Shown piece by piece: positions 2,719 to 50,918 of a stretch of 64,000 nucleotides of DNA. Numbering within the stretch: position 1 is the first letter of the stretch; the number at the start of each line of letters is the position of its first letter. The position numbers and the translations under genes are program-made. A model generated the notes under the pieces. That model worked only from the letters and a program-made list of their open reading frames with translations, ran no database searches and was not told where the DNA came from. Source of the stretch: Alistipes sp. CAG:514. GTDB taxonomy: Bacteria; Bacteroidota; Bacteroidia; Bacteroidales; UBA932. The stretch spans positions 25,356 to 89,355 of the forward strand of contig HF986083.1 in assembly GCA_000431015.1 (NCBI GenBank), read 5' to 3'.

Positions 2719-4146
2719 ATGGTTGAATTGGATAGACATATTTCTGTCTGGAACGAGTGTCTGCGCATATTCGAACAGAACGTCGAGCCTAAGCAGTTCG
2801 AGGTCTGGTTCAAGACAATCGTCCCGGTTTCTCTGGAAGAGTCGACACTGACTGTTGAAGTGCCGACCGACTTCTTCAGAAGCTATCTTGAGGATGCCTT
2901 CCTTCCTATAATAAAGATGACGTTGAGAAGGGTGATCGGCCCCGAGGCTAGACTTCTCTACAAGATTCACCCGGTGCAGAAGGAGCGCGCGATGGTCTTC
3001 ACCGCCGCGCACGGCAACGTGCCGGAGAACAAGCCTGTCTCGATCAACACTTTCCAGCCGTCCGGCAATCCGAGCCCGTTTGTGTTTCCGGGCATCAAGA
3101 AGCTGAAGATCAATCCAAGGCTGAATCCTGTCTACTGTTTCGACAATCTCATCAAGGGTGAGTGCAACAAGATGGGCTACAACGCCGGGATCAGCATCTC
3201 GGACAAGCCAGGCAAGACCCCGTTCAATCCTTTGTTCATTTTCGGAGGCCCCGGCCTGGGGAAGACCCATCTGGCCCAGGCGATCGGCATTGCCATCCAC
3301 GAGGCCTACCCGGATCTTGTCGTCCTCTATGTGACCGGCAACGAATTCAGGACGCAGTACGTCAATGCCGTGAACGTCCAGAACAAGCTTACCGATTTCA
3401 TGGCTTTCTACATGAGGATCGACGTGCTTATCATGGATGACATCCAGGAACTCATCGGGCCGGCCTCCCAGAACGCGTTCTTCAACATATTCAATCACCT
3501 CCACCAGTCCGGCAAGCAGCTGGTCTTCACATCCGACAGGGCCCCGGTGGATCTGATGAACTTCGAGGAGAGGCTTTTGTCGCGGTTCAAGTGGGGGCTC
3601 TCCATCGAGCTCTCCAAGCCTGATCACGACACGAGGCTGGCCATGCTTAAGTCAAGGTGCATCCGGGAGGGCGTCACTGTAAGCGACGATGTCCTTGATC
3701 TGCTGGCCAACAAGGTCAGGTCCAATTTCCGCGAGCTTGAAGGAGCGCTTATCTCCCTGATAGCCAATGCGACGCTTTGCCACGAGGAAGTCACGAAGGA
3801 ACTTGCTGAGCAGGTAACCGGCAACATCGTGGGCGAAGACAAGAACGAACTCACCATCGACAAGGTGCAGGAGGTGGTCTGCGAGTATTTCAATATAACA
3901 CGGGAAACGCTGATTTCCAAATCCAGGAAGAGGCAGATCGTGCAGGCGAGGCAGATCGCCATGTTCATGAGCAGAAATCACATCGGAGGATGCTCTCTGT
4001 CCACGATTGGTATGGAACTTGGAGGCAAAGACCACGCCACTGTGCTTCATGCATGCGCCACGGTGTCCGACCTGATGTCCACGGACAAGACGTTCAGACA
4101 GTATGTGACTGACATCGAGAGGATGCTGGTGCCGGTGACGAGATAA
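2719..4146 (+). CDS. dnaA: Chromosomal replication initiator protein DnaA
   Basis: Walker A GGPGLGKTHLAQAIG, sensor LSRFKWGLSIELSKPD and C-terminal DNA-binding domain (QIAMFMSRNH...GGKDHATVLHA). Confidence 0.97.
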   Translation: MVELDRHISVWNECLRIFEQNVEPKQFEVWFKTIVPVSLEESTLTVEVPTDFFRSYLEDAFLPIIKMTLRRVIGPEARLLYKIHPVQKERAMVFTAAHGNVPENKPVSINTFQPSGNPSPFVFPGIKKLKINPRLNPVYCFDNLIKGECNKMGYNAGISISDKPGKTPFNPLFIFGGPGLGKTHLAQAIGIAIHEAYPDLVVLYVTGNEFRTQYVNAVNVQNKLTDFMAFYMRIDVLIMDDIQELIGPASQNAFFNIFNHLHQSGKQLVFTSDRAPVDLMNFEERLLSRFKWGLSIELSKPDHDTRLAMLKSRCIREGVTVSDDVLDLLANKVRSNFRELEGALISLIANATLCHEEVTKELAEQVTGNIVGEDKNELTIDKVQEVVCEYFNITRETLISKSRKRQIVQARQIAMFMSRNHIGGCSLSTIGMELGGKDHATVLHACATVSDLMSTDKTFRQYVTDIERMLVPVTR

Positions 4147-28609: not shown

Positions 28610-30823
28610 ATGAGGAAAAAACCTTCGTTTTGTCTCTTCGCGGCCACGGTTATGGCCACCACCGTCCTCAGTTTCTCGTGCAGCACCACACGGGTTCTCG
28701 GGGACGGGCAGTTCCGTCTTGCCGACAACAAGGTCGTTGTGGACAATGACAGGAAATTCAACACGAAAGAGATCGAATCCTACATCAAGCAAAAGCCCAA
28801 TTCCTACATAATCTTCGGCTGGAACCCTTTCCTGAACATCTACAACTGGTCCGGAAAGAACGCCGACAAGGGGATCAACAAGTTCCTGAGGAAGATAGGC
28901 ACCGCCCCGGTGGTCTACCAGCCATCGCAGGTGGAAGCGTCCGTGGAGAACATCAACAGGCATCTTGAGTACCTCGGCTACTATGGCTCGGATGTACGGA
29001 GCGAGGTGAGAGTCAATGGTAAAAGAGTGACGGTAACCTATTCAGTGACACTTGGCAGACGCTACAGGATAGGCAACGTCTCCTTCGCCGTCCCCGATGG
29101 CGAGTTCAAGGAGGACTTCTATGCCGACACCGCCGCGGTCTCCATCAGACCAGGAGACTTTCTTTCGGAGGACGCGCTTGAGAAAGAAACCGAGCGCGCC
29201 GCGTCCATGTTCCGCCGCAAGGGCTACTTCGGCTTCACGAAGAACTACTTCTCATTCGAGGCGGACACCCTCGCGCGCAGGGACACCGCCGACCTGCTCA
29301 TGACCGTCAAGGAATATACCAGGAACCAGACCGCCGAATATGCCCGCCCACACAGGAAGTACTTCTTCGGCGACGTCTCCATCTCCTACGACAACGATCT
29401 GAAATTCAATGACCGGGTTCTGAAAAACATCTGCACCATCCGTCCGGGCGCCATGTACGACGAGAGGGAAGTGAACACGACATATTCAAGGCTCTCCGCC
29501 CTCAGGCTTTTCAGCGGAGTGAACGTGGCGCTAAATCCCCGCGACTCCGGAATAGTGGACTGCGACATCAGCCTGACGAAATCAAGGATGCAGGGCTTCA
29601 AGGTCAACCTTGAGGGTTCCACCAATTCCACAGGCTTGATCGGCATCTCCCCTCAGGTCTCCTACTACCACAAGAACATATTCCACGGAGGCCAATGGCT
29701 GAATCTTGGATTCCTCGGCAATTTCCAGTTCAAGTACGACGACAGGAGTGTGAAATCCAACGAGTTCGGAGTCTCCGCCGGACTCAGTTTCCCGGAGTTC
29801 CTGGGGCTGCCTAACTCCATTTTCCACGGCCCGTCCGTGCCACGCACCGAAATCAACGCTTCATATAACTACCAGAACCGTCCTGAATATACGAGGAATA
29901 TGATCTCGACATCTTACGGTTATTCTGGATCTCTGCGTAACGGAAAGTTCTTCTATCAGTTCTACCCGATACAGGCCAAGATCGTCAGGCTGACGAATCT
30001 CGACCCGAACTTCTACACGACTCTTTCCGGCAACCCGTTTATGAGGGACGCCTACCAGAACCACTTCGATGTCGGCTCCGGTCTCGTGGCCTACTACACG
30101 ACCAGCACAGCCTTGGTTCCGAAGGAGACCTATGAATATGCCCGTCTGCAACTCGATGCATCCGGCAATGTCCTGAGCCTGTTCAACAAAGCAATGAAAA
30201 GTGATGAATATGGCTCCAGGCTTATCTGGAACACTCCATATTCCCAGTACATCCGCACGGAACTGACGTTGGGCAAGACGTTTGTGTTCGGCAAGAATGG
30301 AGGGCAAGCCTTGGCGATACGCCTTCTCGGAGGTGTCGGCTACGCCTACGGCAACTCATCCACAATTCCGTTCGAGAAACAGTTCTACAGCGGCGGCGCG
30401 AACAGTATGCGTGGCTGGCAGGCCCGTTCCCTTGGCCCGGGCAACTCAAAGGCTGACACGACGTTCGTGATCCCAAGCCAGACCGGTGACGTGAAGTTGG
30501 AAGCCAATCTGGAGTACCGTTTCCCGATGTTCTGGAAGTTGTGCGGTGCCGTCTTCACGGATGTCGGCAACATCTGGACCCTGAAAGAGACCGACGGAGA
30601 CGATGGCTCCCACACCCATTTCGACCTCAAGAACCTCGCCGCCAGCCTTGCCGCCGACTGGGGAATAGGCCTCCGTGTGGACCTTAACTTCCTGATTCTC
30701 CGTCTCGATATGGGTATGAAAGTCTATGACCCGTCCCTCGACACCGCCCGCTGGCGCTCCCCGTCCCAATGGCTAAAGAAAGACGGCTACACCCTCCACT
30801 TCGGTGTCGGGTATCCGTTCTAG
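28610..30823 (+). CDS. Omp85-superfamily outer membrane protein (BamA/TamA-like, surface antigen D15 domain)
   Basis: Signal peptide, POTRA-like repeats, C-terminal beta-barrel ending with an aromatic residue (...LHFGVGYPF); 737 aa. Confidence 0.75.
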   Translation: MRKKPSFCLFAATVMATTVLSFSCSTTRVLGDGQFRLADNKVVVDNDRKFNTKEIESYIKQKPNSYIIFGWNPFLNIYNWSGKNADKGINKFLRKIGTAPVVYQPSQVEASVENINRHLEYLGYYGSDVRSEVRVNGKRVTVTYSVTLGRRYRIGNVSFAVPDGEFKEDFYADTAAVSIRPGDFLSEDALEKETERAASMFRRKGYFGFTKNYFSFEADTLARRDTADLLMTVKEYTRNQTAEYARPHRKYFFGDVSISYDNDLKFNDRVLKNICTIRPGAMYDEREVNTTYSRLSALRLFSGVNVALNPRDSGIVDCDISLTKSRMQGFKVNLEGSTNSTGLIGISPQVSYYHKNIFHGGQWLNLGFLGNFQFKYDDRSVKSNEFGVSAGLSFPEFLGLPNSIFHGPSVPRTEINASYNYQNRPEYTRNMISTSYGYSGSLRNGKFFYQFYPIQAKIVRLTNLDPNFYTTLSGNPFMRDAYQNHFDVGSGLVAYYTTSTALVPKETYEYARLQLDASGNVLSLFNKAMKSDEYGSRLIWNTPYSQYIRTELTLGKTFVFGKNGGQALAIRLLGGVGYAYGNSSTIPFEKQFYSGGANSMRGWQARSLGPGNSKADTTFVIPSQTGDVKLEANLEYRFPMFWKLCGAVFTDVGNIWTLKETDGDDGSHTHFDLKNLAASLAADWGIGLRVDLNFLILRLDMGMKVYDPSLDTARWRSPSQWLKKDGYTLHFGVGYPF

Positions 30824-30860
30824 AACATAAACATCTCTGTTTTGATGAGCAAGACACTCG

Positions 30861-30900
30861 CAATTCCCGAATTTTGCACGTTACCAAAATTCGGGAATTG
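30861..30900. repeat. REP-like palindromic element, copy 1: 15-bp stem, 10-nt loop GCACGTTACC
   Basis: cAATTCCCGAATTTT-GCACGTTACC-AAAATTCGGGAATTg; perfect inverted repeat between convergent genes (Omp85-like and rlmD). Confidence 0.7.
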
Positions 30901-30956
30901 GAGGTCTCCGCTCATTATGAAGGATCTATGTGTTTATAGTCTTCAAATGACAACAC

Positions 30957-34131: not shown

Positions 34132-35292
34132 CTACACAAGGGAAACTATTGATTCAGAATCGAATTTGGCTGGTGAGAATCCTTGTTTGAATGTAATTCC
34201 ATCACCGAGAATCTTAATTCCGGCCGCGGTCGCCATCTCGTTCAGCAATCGAACACTGGCGGCTGCCCAAGTGAACGATCCGAAGGCAAAGAAACGTCTG
34301 TTCTTGACCAATCTGTCACAGATTGCCTCCATCAACTGACGGACAGGCGGCAATATTCCATTATTATATGTCGGCGAGCCGAGAATTACCGTGTCGTACC
34401 TGAACACGTCGCGCAAAGCGAACGAATAACTCTCCTCATTCAGATTATGGAGCGAGAATGGAATGTTATGTTCTTTCAAGGACTCAGCCAACGCCAAAGC
34501 GGCCTTTTCCGTGTTGCCGTACATCGACCCGTAAGCCAGACAGACACCGTGCTCAAGCGGCTCATAACGACTGAACTTGTCATACAATGAGACAACCTCA
34601 GGAATATGATTCTCCCATACAGGGCCGTGGGTGCTGCAAATCCGGCATATTTCCAAACCGGAAAGCTTCTTCAGCGCAGCCTGAACCGGAGCGGCATATT
34701 TCCCGACAATGTTCGAGTAATACCTCGTCATCTCGTCTTTATATTCATTGAATATGTCTGATTGCGAGTCTACTACGCTTTCCGGGAAGGTTCTGAAGGA
34801 GCCGAAGGCGTCACCGGAGAACAAAGTGCGCTCCTGCGGACACCATGTGACCATAGTCTCCGGCCAATGTACCATTGGAACCATAAAGAATTGAAGATCA
34901 ACGCTTCCCAAGGAGAGACACTCGCCTTCCCTGATAACCTTGATGTTGTCCGTTATGCCTTGGTAGCCCTCGATCATCGGTACAGCCTTGGCGTTGGTGA
35001 CAATCACGCATTCGGGATATTCCTGTCTGACAACCGCCTGAAGCGCACTATGATCTGGCTCCATGTGGTTGACAATCAGGTAGTCAACCTTCCTGTCCCC
35101 TATCTCGCTCTTGATGTTGGCCAGTAATTCGTCCTTGAACGCCACCGCTGCCGTGTCAATCAGCGCGACCTTTTCGTCCACAACAAGATAGGAATTGTAG
35201 CTGACTCCATAAGGAAGCGGCCACTGCCGCTCGAAGAGTTTTGTCTGCAGGTCATTGACTCCCACAAAACGGATTCTTTCAGATAGTCTCAT
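34132..35292 (-). CDS. FprA-family flavodiiron protein (metallo-beta-lactamase fold plus flavodoxin domain)
   Basis: Di-iron site YLIVNHMEPDHS in the beta-lactamase-like domain and a C-terminal flavodoxin-like domain (ILGSPTYNNGILP). Confidence 0.85.
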   Translation of the reverse strand: MRLSERIRFVGVNDLQTKLFERQWPLPYGVSYNSYLVVDEKVALIDTAAVAFKDELLANIKSEIGDRKVDYLIVNHMEPDHSALQAVVRQEYPECVIVTNAKAVPMIEGYQGITDNIKVIREGECLSLGSVDLQFFMVPMVHWPETMVTWCPQERTLFSGDAFGSFRTFPESVVDSQSDIFNEYKDEMTRYYSNIVGKYAAPVQAALKKLSGLEICRICSTHGPVWENHIPEVVSLYDKFSRYEPLEHGVCLAYGSMYGNTEKAALALAESLKEHNIPFSLHNLNEESYSFALRDVFRYDTVILGSPTYNNGILPPVRQLMEAICDRLVKNRRFFAFGSFTWAAASVRLLNEMATAAGIKILGDGITFKQGFSPAKFDSESIVSLV

Positions 35293-35389
35293 CGTTTATA
35301 AAACCTTCTGTCCGAATGCGGCCCGGTTCTTCGCTGGCCGCACCTCGACAAGTAATAGACAAATTTACGAAACTTATTCCGCTTTTTCT

Positions 35390-35397
35390 TAAATTTG
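35390..35397 (+). promoter_or_regulatory. -7 box TAAATTTG upstream of rarA (the divergent box for the flavodiiron gene is on the minus strand at 35360..35367)
   Basis: Exact TAnnTTTG matches on both strands of the divergent region. Confidence 0.35.
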
Positions 35398-35500
35398 CGT
35401 TATGATAAGCCAAAAATAAACGCCAAAGTACTACTAACAAAAATGTTCCGATAGTAAACATTTTTGTTTTACATATTATTAGACAATATATTTATAGAAT

Positions 35501-36823
35501 ATGCTAGACATGCACCAAGATTCGGGCAAAAGCATGATGCTCCCCCCTCTTCCTGAAAGGATGAGGCCTAAAAGCCTGTCGGAATATGTCGGGCAGAGGC
35601 ACCTTGTAGGGGAAGGATGCATCCTGAGGAAGATGATCGAGAACGGGAATCTCTCGTCGTTCATCCTTTGGGGGCCGCCGGGAGTCGGCAAGACTACTCT
35701 TGCCGGAATCATCGCCCAGACTTTGTCCAGGGACTTCTACACCCTGTCGGCGGTCAGCGCCGGCGTGAAGGACGTGCGGGATGTCATCGACAAGGCCAGA
35801 AGCGCTTCCGTGTTCTCCAACGGGGCGGCTCCGATTCTGTTCATAGATGAGATCCACCGGTTCAACAAGGCCCAGCAGGACGCTCTGCTCGGCGCTGTGG
35901 AGAACGGTACCATCATACTCATAGGTGCGACGACCGAGAACCCGTCGTTCGAGGTGATAACACCGCTACTCTCCCGCTGCCAGGTCTTCGTGCTGAAACC
36001 ATTGGAAATCAAAGATCTGCAAACTCTGCTGGATCATGCACTGAAAAACGATGTGCTTCTGAGGGACAAGGACATAGAGATAAGGGAGACCGAGGCAATG
36101 TTCCGCTACAGCGGAGGCGACGGAAGGAAACTGCTCAACGTCCTTGAGATTGTGGTCGATTCATCCGCCGGCGACGGGTCGCGCATCGTCATTGACAATG
36201 AGACGGTTACAAACTGCCTTCAAGAGAACATGGCGATCTACGACAAGGACGGCGAGATGCACTACGACATCATCTCGGCATTCATCAAGTCAATCCGTGG
36301 CTCCGATCCGAACGCCGCGGTCTACTATCTCGCCAGGATGCTGGACGGCGGCGAGGATCCCCTTTTCATAGCGAGAAGGCTCTGCATATCGGCATCCGAG
36401 GATGTCGGCCTTGCCAACCCGAACGCGTTGCTGCTTGCGAACTCCTGCTACCAGATCGTCCATCAGATCGGCATGCCGGAAGCCCGCATCCCTCTCTCGG
36501 AAACCACAATTTACCTTGCAAGCTCTCCTAAAAGTAATGCCACTTATCTTGCTATCAATAAAGCCATTGAATTTTCCTCCCAGAACAAGCAGGCGGCAGT
36601 GCCTCTTTATTTGAGGAACGCCCCCACGAAGCTGATGGAGGAACTTGGCTACGCCGACGGCTACAAGTACGCCCACGACTTCCCGGGACATTTCGCTGAT
36701 CTGGAGTTCATGCCGGAGGGACTTGAGGGAACCGTGTTCTACGAACCTGCATCTAACCCTCAGGAAGACAGGCTGAAAGCCTATCTGCAAGCATGCTGGC
36801 CAAAGTACTACTCCAAAAAGTAA
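35501..36823 (+). CDS. rarA: Replication-associated recombination protein A (AAA ATPase RarA/MgsA)
   Basis: Walker A GPPGVGKTTLAGIIA, Walker B LFIDEIHRFNK, MgsA C-terminal domains. Confidence 0.93.
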   Translation: MLDMHQDSGKSMMLPPLPERMRPKSLSEYVGQRHLVGEGCILRKMIENGNLSSFILWGPPGVGKTTLAGIIAQTLSRDFYTLSAVSAGVKDVRDVIDKARSASVFSNGAAPILFIDEIHRFNKAQQDALLGAVENGTIILIGATTENPSFEVITPLLSRCQVFVLKPLEIKDLQTLLDHALKNDVLLRDKDIEIRETEAMFRYSGGDGRKLLNVLEIVVDSSAGDGSRIVIDNETVTNCLQENMAIYDKDGEMHYDIISAFIKSIRGSDPNAAVYYLARMLDGGEDPLFIARRLCISASEDVGLANPNALLLANSCYQIVHQIGMPEARIPLSETTIYLASSPKSNATYLAINKAIEFSSQNKQAAVPLYLRNAPTKLMEELGYADGYKYAHDFPGHFADLEFMPEGLEGTVFYEPASNPQEDRLKAYLQACWPKYYSKK

Positions 36824-37882: not shown

Positions 37883-39166
37883 ATGAAATTCAAACCCACT
37901 GATTACCGGCTTGTGAATGTCGGCACCGGAAAAGAGTTCGAGGATGCCGGTTGGTCGCTTGCAGACCCGCAGGCTCCCTCACCTTCCTTGGTCAGAGCTG
38001 TCTACGAAAACGAGAAATTCACGCCCAGAGACGACCTGAAGGGGCTTTACAGGTACGCCGAATGGCTTCCGGTCAGACGTACACTCAGAAACTCCCACGC
38101 CCCTGTGACCTACAAGAGCAAGGGGCTGGCGGATCTGCTCGGCATGGAGAACCTCTACATCACCTTGTCCGGCTATGTTCCCAAGCGCGGGGCAAGGATG
38201 GAAACCTGCTCGTTCAAGGAAACAGAGGCTTTCTCCGTCTGCGCGAGGCTCCCGAAGAACGACAAGCGTGTACTTGTCGTCCAGTCAGCCGGCAACACGG
38301 CAAGGGCATTCGCCCGCGTATGCTCGGACAATGACATTCCTGTCGTCATCTGCATCCCGAACGACAACATCAGCGACCTTTGGTTCCTTAAGAAGCTGAA
38401 GTCCTGCGTAAAGGTCATCGCGACACCGAACGGCACGGACTACTACGACGCTATCGCTCTCGGGGAGAAGCTTTGCAAGGACCCTCGCTATCTTGCGGAA
38501 GGAGGTGCGAAGAACGTCGCCCGCAGAGACGGCATGGGAACCACCATACTCAGCGCTGTCGAGGTGATCGGACGTATTCCTGACGCCTATTTCCAGGCGG
38601 TCGGCAGCGGAACAGGAGCCATCGCGGCCTGGGAGAACGCATGCAGACTGGCAAAGGACGGTAGGTTCGGCGAGAACAGGATGAGGGTCTACTGCGCGCA
38701 GAACTCTCCTTTCACCCTGATGTACGATTCATGGAAAGCCGGGTCAAGAGAGCTTGTACCAATCACTCCCGAGGAGTCAAGAGGAAAGGCCGAGGTGATT
38801 CTCGCCAAGGTTCTGTCCAACAGAAAACCGCCTTACAGCCTTGCCGGCGGCCTGTTCGATGTCCTCAAGGAGACGAACGGAGATTTCTACAAGGTGTCCA
38901 ACGACCAGATCGTCTACTGGATGCTCCAGTTCTTCAACAAGGAGGGATACGACATCTTGCCGGCGGCGGCCTGCGCTGTCGCGGCGTTGAAGAATGCACT
39001 GGAGGACGGTGTGGTGAAGAGAGACGAGACCGTGATGCTGAACATCACAGGCGCGGGTATGCTGAACGCCACCAGCAAAGGCTTCGAGATGAAGAAGCCA
39101 GATCTGATTCTCAGCACGGATCTTTCCGCCGAAGAGGTGATCGCCAGTGTCGACCGACTGTTTTAA
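37883..39166 (+). CDS. Threonine-synthase-family PLP-dependent enzyme (atypical; candidate cysteate synthase)
   Basis: ThrC-like N-terminus (LYRYAEWLPV), PLP lysine in SFKETEAF (canonical SFKDRG), QSAGNTARAFA, fold-type II C-terminal half. Confidence 0.55.
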   Translation: MKFKPTDYRLVNVGTGKEFEDAGWSLADPQAPSPSLVRAVYENEKFTPRDDLKGLYRYAEWLPVRRTLRNSHAPVTYKSKGLADLLGMENLYITLSGYVPKRGARMETCSFKETEAFSVCARLPKNDKRVLVVQSAGNTARAFARVCSDNDIPVVICIPNDNISDLWFLKKLKSCVKVIATPNGTDYYDAIALGEKLCKDPRYLAEGGAKNVARRDGMGTTILSAVEVIGRIPDAYFQAVGSGTGAIAAWENACRLAKDGRFGENRMRVYCAQNSPFTLMYDSWKAGSRELVPITPEESRGKAEVILAKVLSNRKPPYSLAGGLFDVLKETNGDFYKVSNDQIVYWMLQFFNKEGYDILPAAACAVAALKNALEDGVVKRDETVMLNITGAGMLNATSKGFEMKKPDLILSTDLSAEEVIASVDRLF

Positions 39167-39201
39167 ATCGTGATATATCGCCAGGTTCGGGCAGCAAAAA
39201 G

Positions 39202-39243
39202 CTGAATTCCAAATTTTGCACGTTACCAAAATTTGAAATTCAG
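39202..39243. repeat. REP-like palindromic element, copy 2 (same loop GCACGTTACC; stem with one mismatch, extendable to ~39197..39248)
   Basis: cTGAATTCCAAATTTT-GCACGTTACC-AAAATTTGAAATTCAg; followed by a T-run. Confidence 0.7.
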
Positions 39244-39369
39244 TTTTTCTGCTGCTTGAAAGTGTTATAGAAAAAAAATATTTATATAGATAACTAATCT
39301 GTTTCAATACTTATAAGACAGCAAAATATACTCCATACCAAATTATTGGGCAGAATATACACAGCGTTC

Positions 39370-39411
39370 AGAAAATAAAAATTCCAAAATTTTGATAACG
39401 TGCAAAATTTT
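39370..39411. repeat. REP-like palindromic element, copy 3, inverted orientation (loop GATAACGTGC = reverse complement of GCACGTTATC)
   Basis: AAAATTCCAAAATTTT-GATAACGTGC-AAAATTTTGGAATTTT; perfect 16-bp stem; 126 bp from copy 2. Confidence 0.7.
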
Positions 39412-44027: not shown

Positions 44028-45299
44028 ATGACACAAGCGTCAATCTGCACTATCGGCGACGAGATTCTGATCGGCCAGATAGTTGACACCAATTCATCGC
44101 ACATCTCCTCCGCCCTTGAGGACATAGGAGTCAAGGTCACACGGATGCTCTCGATCGGAGACGCCCGCGACGAGATCGTTAACAACCTGACAAACGAACT
44201 GAGCGCCAATCAGATAGTCATCACTACCGGAGGCCTCGGACCGACCAAGGATGACATCACGAAGGCAGCCCTCGCCGAGATCTCCGGGAGCAAGGGCTAC
44301 GTGGTGAACGAGGCTCAGCTCAAGATCGTCCACGAGATCCTTCACGCGCGGGGACTCGATGTACTGGACATCAACAAGGCCCAGGCCCTTGTTCCCGACA
44401 CTTGCGAAGTAATTGTCAATCACCTCGGTACAGCACCCATCATGGTGTTCCGCTTCCCTGCCTCGCGCTTCGGCCACGCAGCCACCCTCTATGCGCTCCC
44501 CGGAGTCCCGTTCGAGGCTGTAGGCGCGATTCCGGACATCATCAAAGACATAAGGACGCACGAAAGCCTCTCCGACATATTCCATAAATGCGTGATGGTC
44601 TTCGGCTTGGCCGAATCCGCCCTGTCGAAGGTAATAGAGTCATGGGAGGACAGTCTGCCGGAGGACATGCATCTTGCGTACCTTCCGAACCCGCTGACCG
44701 GCGTCCGCCTGAGGCTCTCCATCTACGGTGGCCGCAAGGAGGATGAGGAAAAGCGCATAGACGCGGAATTCGCACGGCTGAGACCGCTTCTTGGAGAGAA
44801 GATATATTCATACAAGGACGACACGCTGGAAAGCGCCATAGGGGCGATTTTCCGAGGCTCCGGGAAGACACTCAGCGCGGCTGAATCCTGCACGGGCGGC
44901 AAGATCTCCTCGCTGATCACCTCTGTGCCAGGCTCATCAGAGTACTACCTCGGCTCAGTGACATCATACGCCATCCCGGTCAAGGAGAAAGTGCTCGGGG
45001 TACCAGGATCCACGATCAATGAACACGGTGTCGTCAGTTCCGAAGTCGCGGCAGCGATGGCCGAAAGGGTCAGGAAACTGACCGGAAGCGACTACGCCGT
45101 CTCCACCACCGGACTTGCCGGGCCGGGCGGCGACAAGAGCAACCCTGTCGGCACAGTCTGGATCGGAGTCGCCGGACCTAACGGGACCAGGACGGTGAAA
45201 AAGGTCTACAAGAATGACCGAAATAGGAACATCGAGAGATTTGCGGCAGCCGCACTCGATGAATTACGGCTCTTAGTTCTCGAAGACCTATCTAAATAA
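44028..45299 (+). CDS. cinA: CinA family protein (MoCF-binding domain plus NMN deamidase PncC-like domain)
   Basis: N-terminus ICTIGDEILIGQIVDTNS and C-terminal CinA domain; 423 aa. Confidence 0.9.
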   Translation: MTQASICTIGDEILIGQIVDTNSSHISSALEDIGVKVTRMLSIGDARDEIVNNLTNELSANQIVITTGGLGPTKDDITKAALAEISGSKGYVVNEAQLKIVHEILHARGLDVLDINKAQALVPDTCEVIVNHLGTAPIMVFRFPASRFGHAATLYALPGVPFEAVGAIPDIIKDIRTHESLSDIFHKCVMVFGLAESALSKVIESWEDSLPEDMHLAYLPNPLTGVRLRLSIYGGRKEDEEKRIDAEFARLRPLLGEKIYSYKDDTLESAIGAIFRGSGKTLSAAESCTGGKISSLITSVPGSSEYYLGSVTSYAIPVKEKVLGVPGSTINEHGVVSSEVAAAMAERVRKLTGSDYAVSTTGLAGPGGDKSNPVGTVWIGVAGPNGTRTVKKVYKNDRNRNIERFAAAALDELRLLVLEDLSK

Positions 45300-45302
45300 C
45301 AA

Positions 45303-45357
45303 TCAACACTTGTAACAAAATAGTTTGGCACATAAACATTTTTGTTACAAGTGTTGA
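45303..45357. terminator. Perfect 18-bp stem / 19-nt loop hairpin between convergent cinA and dipeptidase genes (candidate bidirectional terminator)
   Basis: TCAACACTTGTAACAAAA-[tagtttggcacataaacat]-TTTTGTTACAAGTGTTGA; centred in the 74-bp convergent intergenic gap. Confidence 0.55.
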
Positions 45358-45373
45358 CTGTAGTCAATAAAAC

Positions 45374-46456
45374 CTATCTTAAGGACTTGGAAATCACCTC
45401 ATTGAAGACCCGGAGGAAATTCCCGCCCGCGATTTTCCCTATCTGATCATCGGTGTAGCCTCTTCTCGCCATTTCATCGAAGATCACCCGTATCTTAGAC
45501 ACGTCCTCAAGGCCCTGGGGAGTCACTTCTATGCCATCGAAATCAGATCCGAGGCCGACATGGTCGATGCCGGCGACCTTCACCGCATGGTCGATGTGAT
45601 CGACGACATCCCTGTATGAAGGCCGCGGCAAAGCAGCCAGCTCATCCTGAACGGCGTTCCAGGCCGCAGCTTTCTCCGGATTAAGCGGGTCGCTTATCCA
45701 GTCCTGCTCGGTCCAGCTTTTGGACTCAAGGCCGGAATCAGCCAGGATCTTCGCGAAAGAATCCGACAGAAAGAGGGGATAGAAATTGATCTGTATCACT
45801 CCGCCGTTGTCCGCCAACGACTTAAGCATCTCGTCCGAGAGATTGCGGCGATGATGCGCCAAGGCTCTGCAACAGGAATGCGTGGAGACAATCGGTGATT
45901 TTGAGCATCGCAGCACATCGTAGAATGTCTCGTCGGAGGCATGGGCGATGTCTATGATCATTCCGAGGCGGTTCATCTCGGCGACCACCTCCCTCCCGAA
46001 CGGACTGAGACCGTGCCAGCGTGTGCCTTGCGCTGCCGAGTCAGCAATCTCATTGTCGGCATTGTGCGTGAGCGTCAAATACCTTACTCCCAGACGATGG
46101 AACACCCTAAGAAGCGGGAGCGACCTCTGGATGGGCGCACCGTTCTCCATGCCTATGAATATGGAGATCAAGCCTTTGTCCTTGTTCTCAAGCGCCTCTT
46201 CCGGACTCGTGGCGATCGCCGCAAGATCAGGGTTCGCTCCTACTTGATCATAGATGGCGCCGATCATCTCCAGCGCATGTCTTGTGGAGGCATCCGGAGC
46301 CAGATCAGGAGAGGTGTACAAGGCGAAAAAGGAGGCATCGACCCCGCCGGCCTTAAGCTTCGGCAGATCGACATGCCCCCTGCTGTTGTTCTTTCCGATG
46401 TCACGCCCGCGCATCATCATCGTGGGCGTGTCGCAATGAGAGTCAAGGACGAACAT
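45374..46456 (-). CDS. Membrane dipeptidase (peptidase family M19)
   Basis: M19 renal-dipeptidase-like pattern including the DSHCD start, DxAHxS and HxxH metal ligands. Confidence 0.85.
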   Translation of the reverse strand: MFVLDSHCDTPTMMMRGRDIGKNNSRGHVDLPKLKAGGVDASFFALYTSPDLAPDASTRHALEMIGAIYDQVGANPDLAAIATSPEEALENKDKGLISIFIGMENGAPIQRSLPLLRVFHRLGVRYLTLTHNADNEIADSAAQGTRWHGLSPFGREVVAEMNRLGMIIDIAHASDETFYDVLRCSKSPIVSTHSCCRALAHHRRNLSDEMLKSLADNGGVIQINFYPLFLSDSFAKILADSGLESKSWTEQDWISDPLNPEKAAAWNAVQDELAALPRPSYRDVVDHIDHAVKVAGIDHVGLGSDFDGIEVTPQGLEDVSKIRVIFDEMARRGYTDDQIGKIAGGNFLRVFNEVISKSLR

Positions 46457-50882: not shown

Positions 50883-50918
50883 AACAAAAATGTTAATACC
50901 TAAAACAACTTTGTTTCA

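Follow-up and report, generated by a model that had tools for sequence, protein, structure and literature searches.

We found a family of long hairpins in uncultured Bacteroidales in which the tip is nearly invariant and the stem below it varies freely. Three copies lie in the 64,000-nt stretch of DNA analysed here (the window) and more than 100 in related genomes, which bears out an earlier, preliminary description of these elements as a multi-copy family. Dispersed terminator-like palindromes are an already known kind of element; a fixed tip in two 'alleles', combined with free stems and frequent flips and swaps of the loop, has to our knowledge not been described. As to their role, we regard it as an even call that the hairpins are lineage-specific dispersed terminators or 3′-end hairpins, whose tip would be a recognition module for a putative trans factor and whose arms would be kept symmetric by DNA-level conversion. 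The family itself, its structure and covariation, its placement, the bias in loop orientation and its evolution are observed; we infer both termination or 3′-end protection and the tip-binding factor. The terminator role is predicted because of the anatomy and position of the elements. The factor is proposed because genomes at least 20% apart retain an asymmetric 8-nt loop and a specific 7-bp stem top without change, because only two loop types occur and because the loop is biased towards the sense of the upstream gene.

Three hairpins in the window

Inverted repeats were found at all three places where elements had initially been reported. The hairpins and the genes that flank them are:

28610..30823, + strand: Omp85/POTRA gene; stop 37 nt before the element 1 core, loop of element 1 in this gene's sense
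30843..30917, + strand: element 1, full imperfect hairpin of about 75 nt, 31 pairs; covariance-model score 63.4 bits, E 5.6e-13
30861-30900: element 1 core, perfect 16 bp; arms 30861-30876/30885-30900, 100% complementary
30872..30889, + strand: element 1 tip, TTTTG-CACGTTAC-CAAAA, a 5-bp A/T-rich stem top with an 8-nt loop
30957..32363, - strand: rlmD-like 23S rRNA methyltransferase gene, convergent with the Omp85 gene; stop 56 nt from the element 1 core
37883..39166, + strand: PLP-dependent (PALP) enzyme gene, upstream of element 2, loop in its sense
39190..39256, + strand: element 2, full hairpin with imperfect outer pairing, span about 83 nt; 71.5 bits
39197-39248: element 2 core with two mismatches; arms 39197-39218/39227-39248, 22 nt, 91% complementary
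39214..39231, + strand: element 2 tip, TTTTG-CACGTTAC-CAAAA
39361..39436, - strand: element 3, full hairpin of about 76 nt; 74.2 bits
39364-39433, - strand: element 3 core; arms 39364-39394/39403-39433, 31 nt, 87% complementary
39390..39407, - strand: element 3 tip, TTTTG-CACGTTAT-CAAAA
39460..40632, - strand: gene for 390 aa without Pfam match, upstream of element 3, loop in its sense

Each element follows a stop codon inside a convergent spacer, so that the reported position between convergent gene ends held for three of three window copies, and in all three the orientation of CACGTTAY is the sense of the nearest upstream gene. Eight nucleotides separate the arms in every case and the common tip is TTTTG-CACGTTAY-CAAAA. 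The loop is therefore 8 nt long, CACGTTAY, rather than the 10 nt first described: the adjoining G and C form a closing pair, which is replaced by a compensatory T-A pair in three related copies. An element size of about 40 nt had also been given; including the imperfect outer pairing, the elements measure about 75, 83 and 76 nt. The claim that the loop is conserved and the stems vary was right for the fixed loop and for the lower stem, which covaries, but the A/T stem top RAATTTTG...CAAAATTY is conserved as well.

The U-tract of element 2 (TTTTT, 39244-39248) pairs with an AAAAA tract in the 5′ arm, and the 3′ arm of element 3 is U-rich (UUUUUAUUUUC, in - sense). Element 1 has no U-tract 3′ of its stem. 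Among the matches listed, element 3 is the only hairpin with the T variant of the loop. The window contains the 22-mer AATTTTGCACGTTAYCAAAATT three times and no more (twice on the + strand, once on the - strand) versus none in 100 shuffles, and with over 100 hairpin copies elsewhere a chance match was rejected. A covariance model of 108 family members had exactly these three strong matches in the window (E<=6e-13).

A separate 63-nt A/T-rich hairpin with 28-nt arms and the loop GGCACAT was noticed at 45299-45361, where it occupies the 74-nt spacer of two convergent genes (44028-45299, + strand; 45374-46456, - strand). Its match to the family model was weak and generic (E about 0.002), and it could be either a long terminator of unrelated origin or a relative that has decayed.

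Family anatomy, pairing and position

The family was collected by scanning one genome per species with the 18-mer pattern TTTTGCACGTTAYCAAAA, which returned at least 115 stretches (L001-L115). Long hairpins accounted for about 106 copies among the matches listed, from about 25 uncultured Bacteroidales genome bins that include Alistipes sp. CAG:435, UMGS648, UBA755, UBA6397, UBA6366, UBA6428, UBA1628, UBA1077 and Hadza gut MAGs. Several 'cleanbin' MAGs with non-Bacteroidales labels carried the family too, and we took these labels as mis-binning. About 20 further listed matches, in unrelated taxa and mostly with the T variant, were isolated and had no palindromic flanks; they were taken as chance. 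The best-sampled genomes hold at least 7-11 copies each, the window three in 64 kb, and near-identical paralogues inside one genome were few. All genomes compared are MAGs, their genes rest on simple ORF calls, and the copies are related, so the counts given here are non-independent. The window organism is a human-gut bacterium, since identical RlmD was found on at least 22 metagenome contigs. Viral contigs contributed a single distinct family locus, the same element in L116, L118, L119 and L120 (IMG/VR), and its sequence is exactly that of a chromosomal element from a Hadza gut MAG (L032:2870-2951). These viral-labelled copies are probably a prophage edge or host DNA within viral bins, and a phage origin of the family was rejected on this exact match of the lone viral-contig locus to a host element.

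Elements have a median length of 73 nt and 30 pairs; the mean MFE was -43 kcal/mol (108-nt segments with the tip at the centre). In hairpins with a CACGTTAC loop, the stem top was TTTTG|CAAAA in 103 cases and the compensatory TTTTT|AAAAA in 3, with no other form. The two pairs below it, at positions outside the search pattern, were A-T in 83-86% of copies. Departures from the 18-mer, by one or two bases, were seen in five of about 110 hairpin copies. Below the tip follows a variable segment of 4-7 bp, usually the place of the G-C pairs; further out, in 60-80% of copies, A predominates at positions 14-19 of the 5′ arm, counted from the tip, and T at positions 13-17 of the 3′ arm. Most copies thus consist of an A-tract, a G+C-containing stem base, an A/U-rich stem top, the loop and a U-tract, and a stable stem-loop followed by a U-rich tract is present in most of them, elements 2 and 3 included and element 1 excepted. 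Judged by sequence, this core anatomy is that of a textbook bidirectional intrinsic terminator, apart from the fixed tip and from pairing that often extends past the A/U tracts into a G+C-rich 'clamp' of 4-8 pairs. Complementarity is down to the background level at more than about 30 nt from the tip, which excluded a long inverted duplication of the entire spacer as the origin of the elements.

In the family genomes, CACGTTAY outside hairpins occurs at about chance level, and the motif there is a hairpin tip only. A DNA uptake sequence (DUS/USS) was rejected on this ground. A trans RNA with complementary sequence was rejected as well, the complementary 8-10-mer showing no excess outside hairpins.

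A second tip type, TTTTG-CACGGTGGAC-CAAAA, has a 10-nt loop on the same stem architecture and stem top. It was found in 57 human-gut metagenome stretches (L130-L186) with about nine stem types, sharing contigs with type A, and in the genome-scan stretches at L031:5502, L067:601, L055:6570 and L084:2690. Conventional terminators with unrelated loops are present alongside the family in the same genomes.

The relatives also contain a smaller repeat family, the hairpin GGTCRC-TGAGCYTGTCGAA-GYGACC, whose 13-nt loop is conserved and which has an R/Y pair that covaries; in this orientation G.U is commoner than A.C. About 120 copies were counted in about 750 kb (L001-L115; for example L050:2090-2125 and L051:7478-7510), none of them in the window. 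Most share a 3′ untranslated region with a big hairpin, which follows 55-130 nt downstream; some form tandem arrays (L064:2150-2340).

Covariation was assessed on 108 distinct copies aligned over a 29-pair helix. Paired cells amounted to 81.9%, versus 61.1% after shuffling and at most 62% with slid partners. Changes on both sides were present in 25 of 29 pairs, with 714 compensatory cells, in agreement with the co-varying stems of the preliminary description. G.U pairs were rare: G.U and A.C cells numbered 40 and 51 in one count and 15 and 48 in another over the inner 11 bp, counts that are confounded by related copies. Since G.U was no commoner than A.C, both DNA strands keep complementarity about equally. 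This fits use in two directions, or a palindrome maintained in the DNA through template switching from arm to arm, but not selection on a single RNA; strand-specific RNA selection was accordingly rejected, with the same reservation about related copies. A ligand of the loop had been deduced from the covariation. The invariant tip stands, and a ligand would be its most attractive explanation; the missing G.U excess, together with loop flips at orthologous sites, makes the covariation itself unclean evidence for an RNA ligand.

By simple ORF calls, 55 copies were convergent, 30 tandem and 2 (apparently) divergent, and a gene 3′ end lay upstream of 85 of the 87 classified copies, all copies being outside credible genes. 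The association with gene ends is thus general, but the arrangement between convergent genes, true of the window, does not extend to all copies. The elements lie about 35-70 nt past stop codons, at a median stop-to-tip distance of 69 nt, and their neighbours are ordinary, mutually unrelated genes (rpoC, metK, rluD, rlmD, an aminopeptidase, a TonB-dependent receptor). No recurrent transposase-like gene adjoined 110 copies, where the only recurring families were orthologous housekeeping genes; no RAYT-like gene was present among 10 window genes or beside the 110 copies (about 0.8 Mb from about 25 genomes examined), and no integrase or recombinase was seen adjoining the elements.

Of 101 copies, 70 presented the loop CACGUUAC in sense and 31 in antisense relative to the nearest upstream gene (p=1e-4). 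Counted per orthologous site, 34 were sense and 13 antisense (p=0.003), and 11 of 53 orthologous sites had mixed orientation. Orientation is therefore not strictly required, given these mixed sites and about 30% antisense copies. Convergent pairs of elements were mostly arranged +,-, each loop in the sense of its own gene, which points to the direction of transcription, not of replication, as the reference.

Evolution and competing readings

Many orthologous element sites are shared by genomes whose flanks are 77-92% identical. The tip is unchanged at these sites, and the stems diverge with both arms changing together. Elements are kept at orthologous sites across genomes of about 80% identity, and the synteny around them is conserved. 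In a group of six genomes the inner stem and a 3-nt internal loop were kept, and the outer stem was different, though perfectly paired, in nearly every genome. Loop flips within unchanged flanks were observed in L112 versus window element 2, in L020 versus L061, in L092 versus L045 and within the L005 group. Loops are swapped, too: at three or more orthologous sites, one stem bears loop A or loop B (CACGGTGGAC) depending on the genome. A fusion was found at L169:6690-6770, where comparison with L162:1050-1330 and L161:300-780 shows the left arm of one element joined to the outer arm of the element convergent with it. We attribute this chimera to a deletion of the whole spacer between the CAAAATT direct repeats of both tips; slippage on this 7-nt repeat is enough, and site-specific recombination was rejected as its cause. 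Rapid phase variation of the loop found no support, the orientation of element 1 being constant in L127-L129 (identical RlmD protein) and in the 95% relative L121.

Elements are also gained. In the window and in its 95% relative, element 1 lies in a spacer of 134 nt between rlmD and omp85. In relatives with 84-89% identical RlmD the two stops overlap in TCTAGA, or a third gene lies between them with spacers of 4-8 nt; in L122:3905-3935 and L125:3902-3932 the convergent stops overlap in this palindrome, and spacer and terminator are absent. On this sequence comparison element 1 is a gain. Its 38-nt core recurs without a difference at unrelated loci of other genomes (L036, L098). L050 has an extra element that is absent from L033, L061 and L020. 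Neither a target-site duplication nor a clean insertion boundary was seen at these two gains, and 100-180 nt of unrelated flank came along. Paralogues in the same genome that share asymmetric bulges and short flanks were noted for L043/L071, L019/L047 and L089/L107.

In the terminator reading with a tip factor, RNA polymerase would transcribe the A-tract, a stem with few G-C pairs at its base and an A/U-rich top, the 8-nt loop and a U-rich 3′ arm; the hairpin would fold, and the 3′ end would be released or protected. Because the A-tract mirrors the U-tract, one element could serve the convergent gene on the other strand too. The tip RAAUUUUG-CACGUUAC-CAAAAUUY (18-22 nt) would be the docking module for a sequence-specific trans factor, protein or RNA, and the loop would be presented preferentially in the sense of the upstream gene. 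The arms would stay complementary chiefly through events in the DNA, template switching or conversion inside the palindrome, and the same events would give rise to loop flips and swaps. Several observations do not sit easily with this picture. Bidirectional terminators had already been suggested in the preliminary description, and position at gene 3′ ends and anatomy agree with them; element 1, with no U-tract, does not. The G+C 'clamps' past the tracts would be missing from the terminated RNA, the stems bear no RNA-specific signature in which G.U is favoured over A.C, about 30% of loops are antisense with 11 of 53 sites mixed, and close relatives with overlapping convergent stops manage with no hairpin at the site of element 1.

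Part of this evidence would suit selfish non-autonomous palindromes, REP/REPIN- or MITE-like, whose folded single-stranded tip a DNA enzyme, for example an HUH/Y1 transposase, would read so as to copy the element to gene ends; terminator-like anatomy and convergent position would then be by-products of tolerated insertion sites. The gain of element 1 in a 134-nt spacer where relatives have overlapping stops, the extra element of L050 missing from L033, L061 and L020, the identical 38-nt core at the unrelated L036 and L098 loci, the paralogues with common bulges and short flanks (L043/L071, L019/L047, L089/L107) and the equal complementarity of both strands are all compatible with such mobility. 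We nevertheless hold it to be unlikely. A transposase would naturally bind the arms, yet the stems are unconserved; the gains show no target-site duplication or clean boundary and bring 100-180 nt of unrelated flank; no transposase-like gene recurs beside 110 copies; near-identical copies in one genome are too few for a recent burst; most copies are old and kept at orthologous sites; and the orientation bias tracks transcription. A MITE in particular was rejected on its variable outer arms, on the missing duplications at the two gains and on palindromy that ends about 30 nt from the tip.

The exchange of loops A and B on the same stem at three or more orthologous sites, the loop flips and the fusion of neighbouring elements by deletion between CAAAATT repeats may, alternatively, reflect concerted evolution: ordinary, independent terminators whose tips became alike through ectopic template switching or gene conversion seeded by the A/T stem top, the loop being read by nothing. 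This would leave unexplained why the same 8-nt loop and 7-bp stem top occur in about 25 genomes with flanks at least 20% divergent and why two loop types only persist, and the conventional terminators with unrelated loops that coexist with the family remain unconverted, so we consider it improbable. Still less probable, in our judgement, is a site that acts in DNA, either a cruciform or hairpin tip for a DNA-binding protein (a topology or gyrase site, as proposed for BIMEs) or a lox/dif-like core for a tyrosine recombinase. Recombinase core sites do resemble inverted repeats that flank an 8-bp asymmetric spacer, and that arrangement is seen in the sequence; enrichment between convergent genes, equally complementary strands and perfect palindromes that reach past the A and U tracts would suit such a site too. 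Yet tens to hundreds of active recombination sites in two orientations would scramble the chromosome, and synteny is conserved; slippage on a 7-nt repeat accounts for the sole rearrangement seen; a double-stranded DNA site has no need of a gene-direction bias or of paired sites in opposite orientation; and no integrase or recombinase was seen adjoining the elements. The terminator, selfish-repeat, concerted-evolution and DNA-site readings are not mutually exclusive.

Within the terminator reading, the tip may be the docking site of a dedicated, lineage-restricted hairpin-loop protein, a bacterial counterpart of SLBP or a sequence-specific termination or 3′-end-protection factor, although we regard this more specific proposal as doubtful. 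If it were true, the 3′ ends of about a hundred unrelated mRNAs would be marked with two specificities, loop A CACGUUAC and loop B CACGGUGGAC, and loop flips and swaps would bring single genes under the system or release them from it. Within the tip lies UUGCAC, which we take to be similar to the loop motif that RRM domains of the U1A type recognise. Small RRM proteins are encoded in Bacteroidota, which are not known to have Hfq, ProQ or CsrA. The definition and protection of mRNA 3′ ends are poorly understood in Bacteroidota, and the conserved tip could offer a handle on a new hairpin-binding factor, of RNA or of DNA. The element could also mark the ends of transcription units in an abundant uncultured human-gut lineage, and it illustrates how palindromes evolve, with arms that stay symmetric and loops that flip, swap and fuse. 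Should the tip be functionless, the element would be a minor curiosity.

Known systems and further motifs

The window gave no match in Rfam 15 at gathering thresholds, and permissive scans yielded sub-threshold hits only, nearly all to miRNA-precursor models; a known RNA family was rejected on the lack of any above-threshold hit in either search. Literature searches (loop sequence; Bacteroides terminators, Bacteroidetes REPs, conserved-loop terminators, RbpB motifs) returned no description of the element. The sequence was absent from the supplements of the human-microbiome structured-RNA catalogue, and the RbpB paper reported no such tip motif. The preliminary description knew of no account of the element in Bacteroidales, and nothing in Rfam or the searched literature contradicted it.

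Like bidirectional intrinsic (Rho-independent) terminators, the elements have an A-tract, a hairpin and a U-tract, lie tens of nucleotides past stops and are often common to two convergent genes. They differ in their unusually long stems (about 30 bp) with an A/U-rich top and in pairing that often goes past the tracts. They also form a family of more than 100 copies with a near-invariant tip of 18-22 nt, whereas terminator loops are normally unconserved.

The resemblance to the REP, BIME and REPIN-RAYT systems of Enterobacteria and Pseudomonas, proposed at the outset, is one of habit: these too are extragenic, palindromic and multi-copy, lie at gene 3′ ends or between convergent genes, are proposed terminators or mRNA stabilisers, and are gained and lost between relatives. 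The family is a high-copy extragenic repeat in the same sense. According to PMC3733652, a REP carries a GTAG or CGTC tetranucleotide tag at one end. REPs combine a conserved stem and this tag with a free loop in 20-40 nt, whereas the family has a free stem and a fixed tip in about 73 nt. Only 2-4 of 110 copies have GTAG, CGTC or their complements close to the hairpin feet. With stems unconserved between copies, the tag absent, a size of about 73 nt and neither a RAYT nor a recurrent transposase-like gene beside 110 copies, the designation as classical REPs was given up.

Repeated terminator-like hairpins are also represented by the TRIT motif of Mycobacterium tuberculosis and the Correia elements of Neisseria. 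These, too, are repeated hairpins that lie between convergent genes and affect the 3′ ends of transcripts, and they differ in being known by a conserved stem or terminal-repeat sequence, the family conserving the tip only. Integron attC sites are likewise hairpins at gene 3′ ends that keep their structure and vary in sequence, and they are read as folded strands by a protein. Their base carries conserved boxes, they contain extrahelical bases and their tip varies, in contrast to the variable base and fixed tip seen here, and an attC identity was rejected: no consensus emerges in the outer alignment columns, housekeeping genes adjoin the copies and no integrase context was seen.

A functional analogy, and no more, can be drawn to the stem-loop at the 3′ end of histone mRNAs and its reader SLBP, where a conserved 3′-end hairpin on many unrelated mRNAs has a dedicated protein reader. 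That system is eukaryotic and has a short 6-bp stem, and no bacterial counterpart of it is known. Non-coding hairpin-loop inversions in plastids and flip/flop terminal hairpins resemble the loop flips, with a loop that inverts between long inverted arms in fixed flanks. This comparison covers the origin of the flips only and not the conservation of the loop.

Other short motifs were noticed in the window. The 12-mer AACATTTTTGTT has four exact copies (0.23 expected), at 35436-35447, 35457-35468, 45335-45346 and 50883-50894, two of which make up a small inverted repeat within a divergent promoter region; it also occurs in the element 2-3 spacer of L003 and L112. A hairpin with the 12-nt loop CTTATTCCGCTT lies at about 35360-35396, in the divergent spacer between a flavodoxin/ODP gene (34132-35292, - strand) and an mgsA-like gene (35501-36823, + strand), and is kept in the window, in L003 (about 3609-3645) and in L112 (about 3936-3972); it could be an operator or a leader element. 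The motif GATAACTAATYTGTTT, at 39289-39304 in the spacer between elements 2 and 3, is kept in the window, L003 and L112 despite strong divergence of the remaining spacer, and could mark a promoter, or a small transcript flanked by the two terminator-like hairpins.
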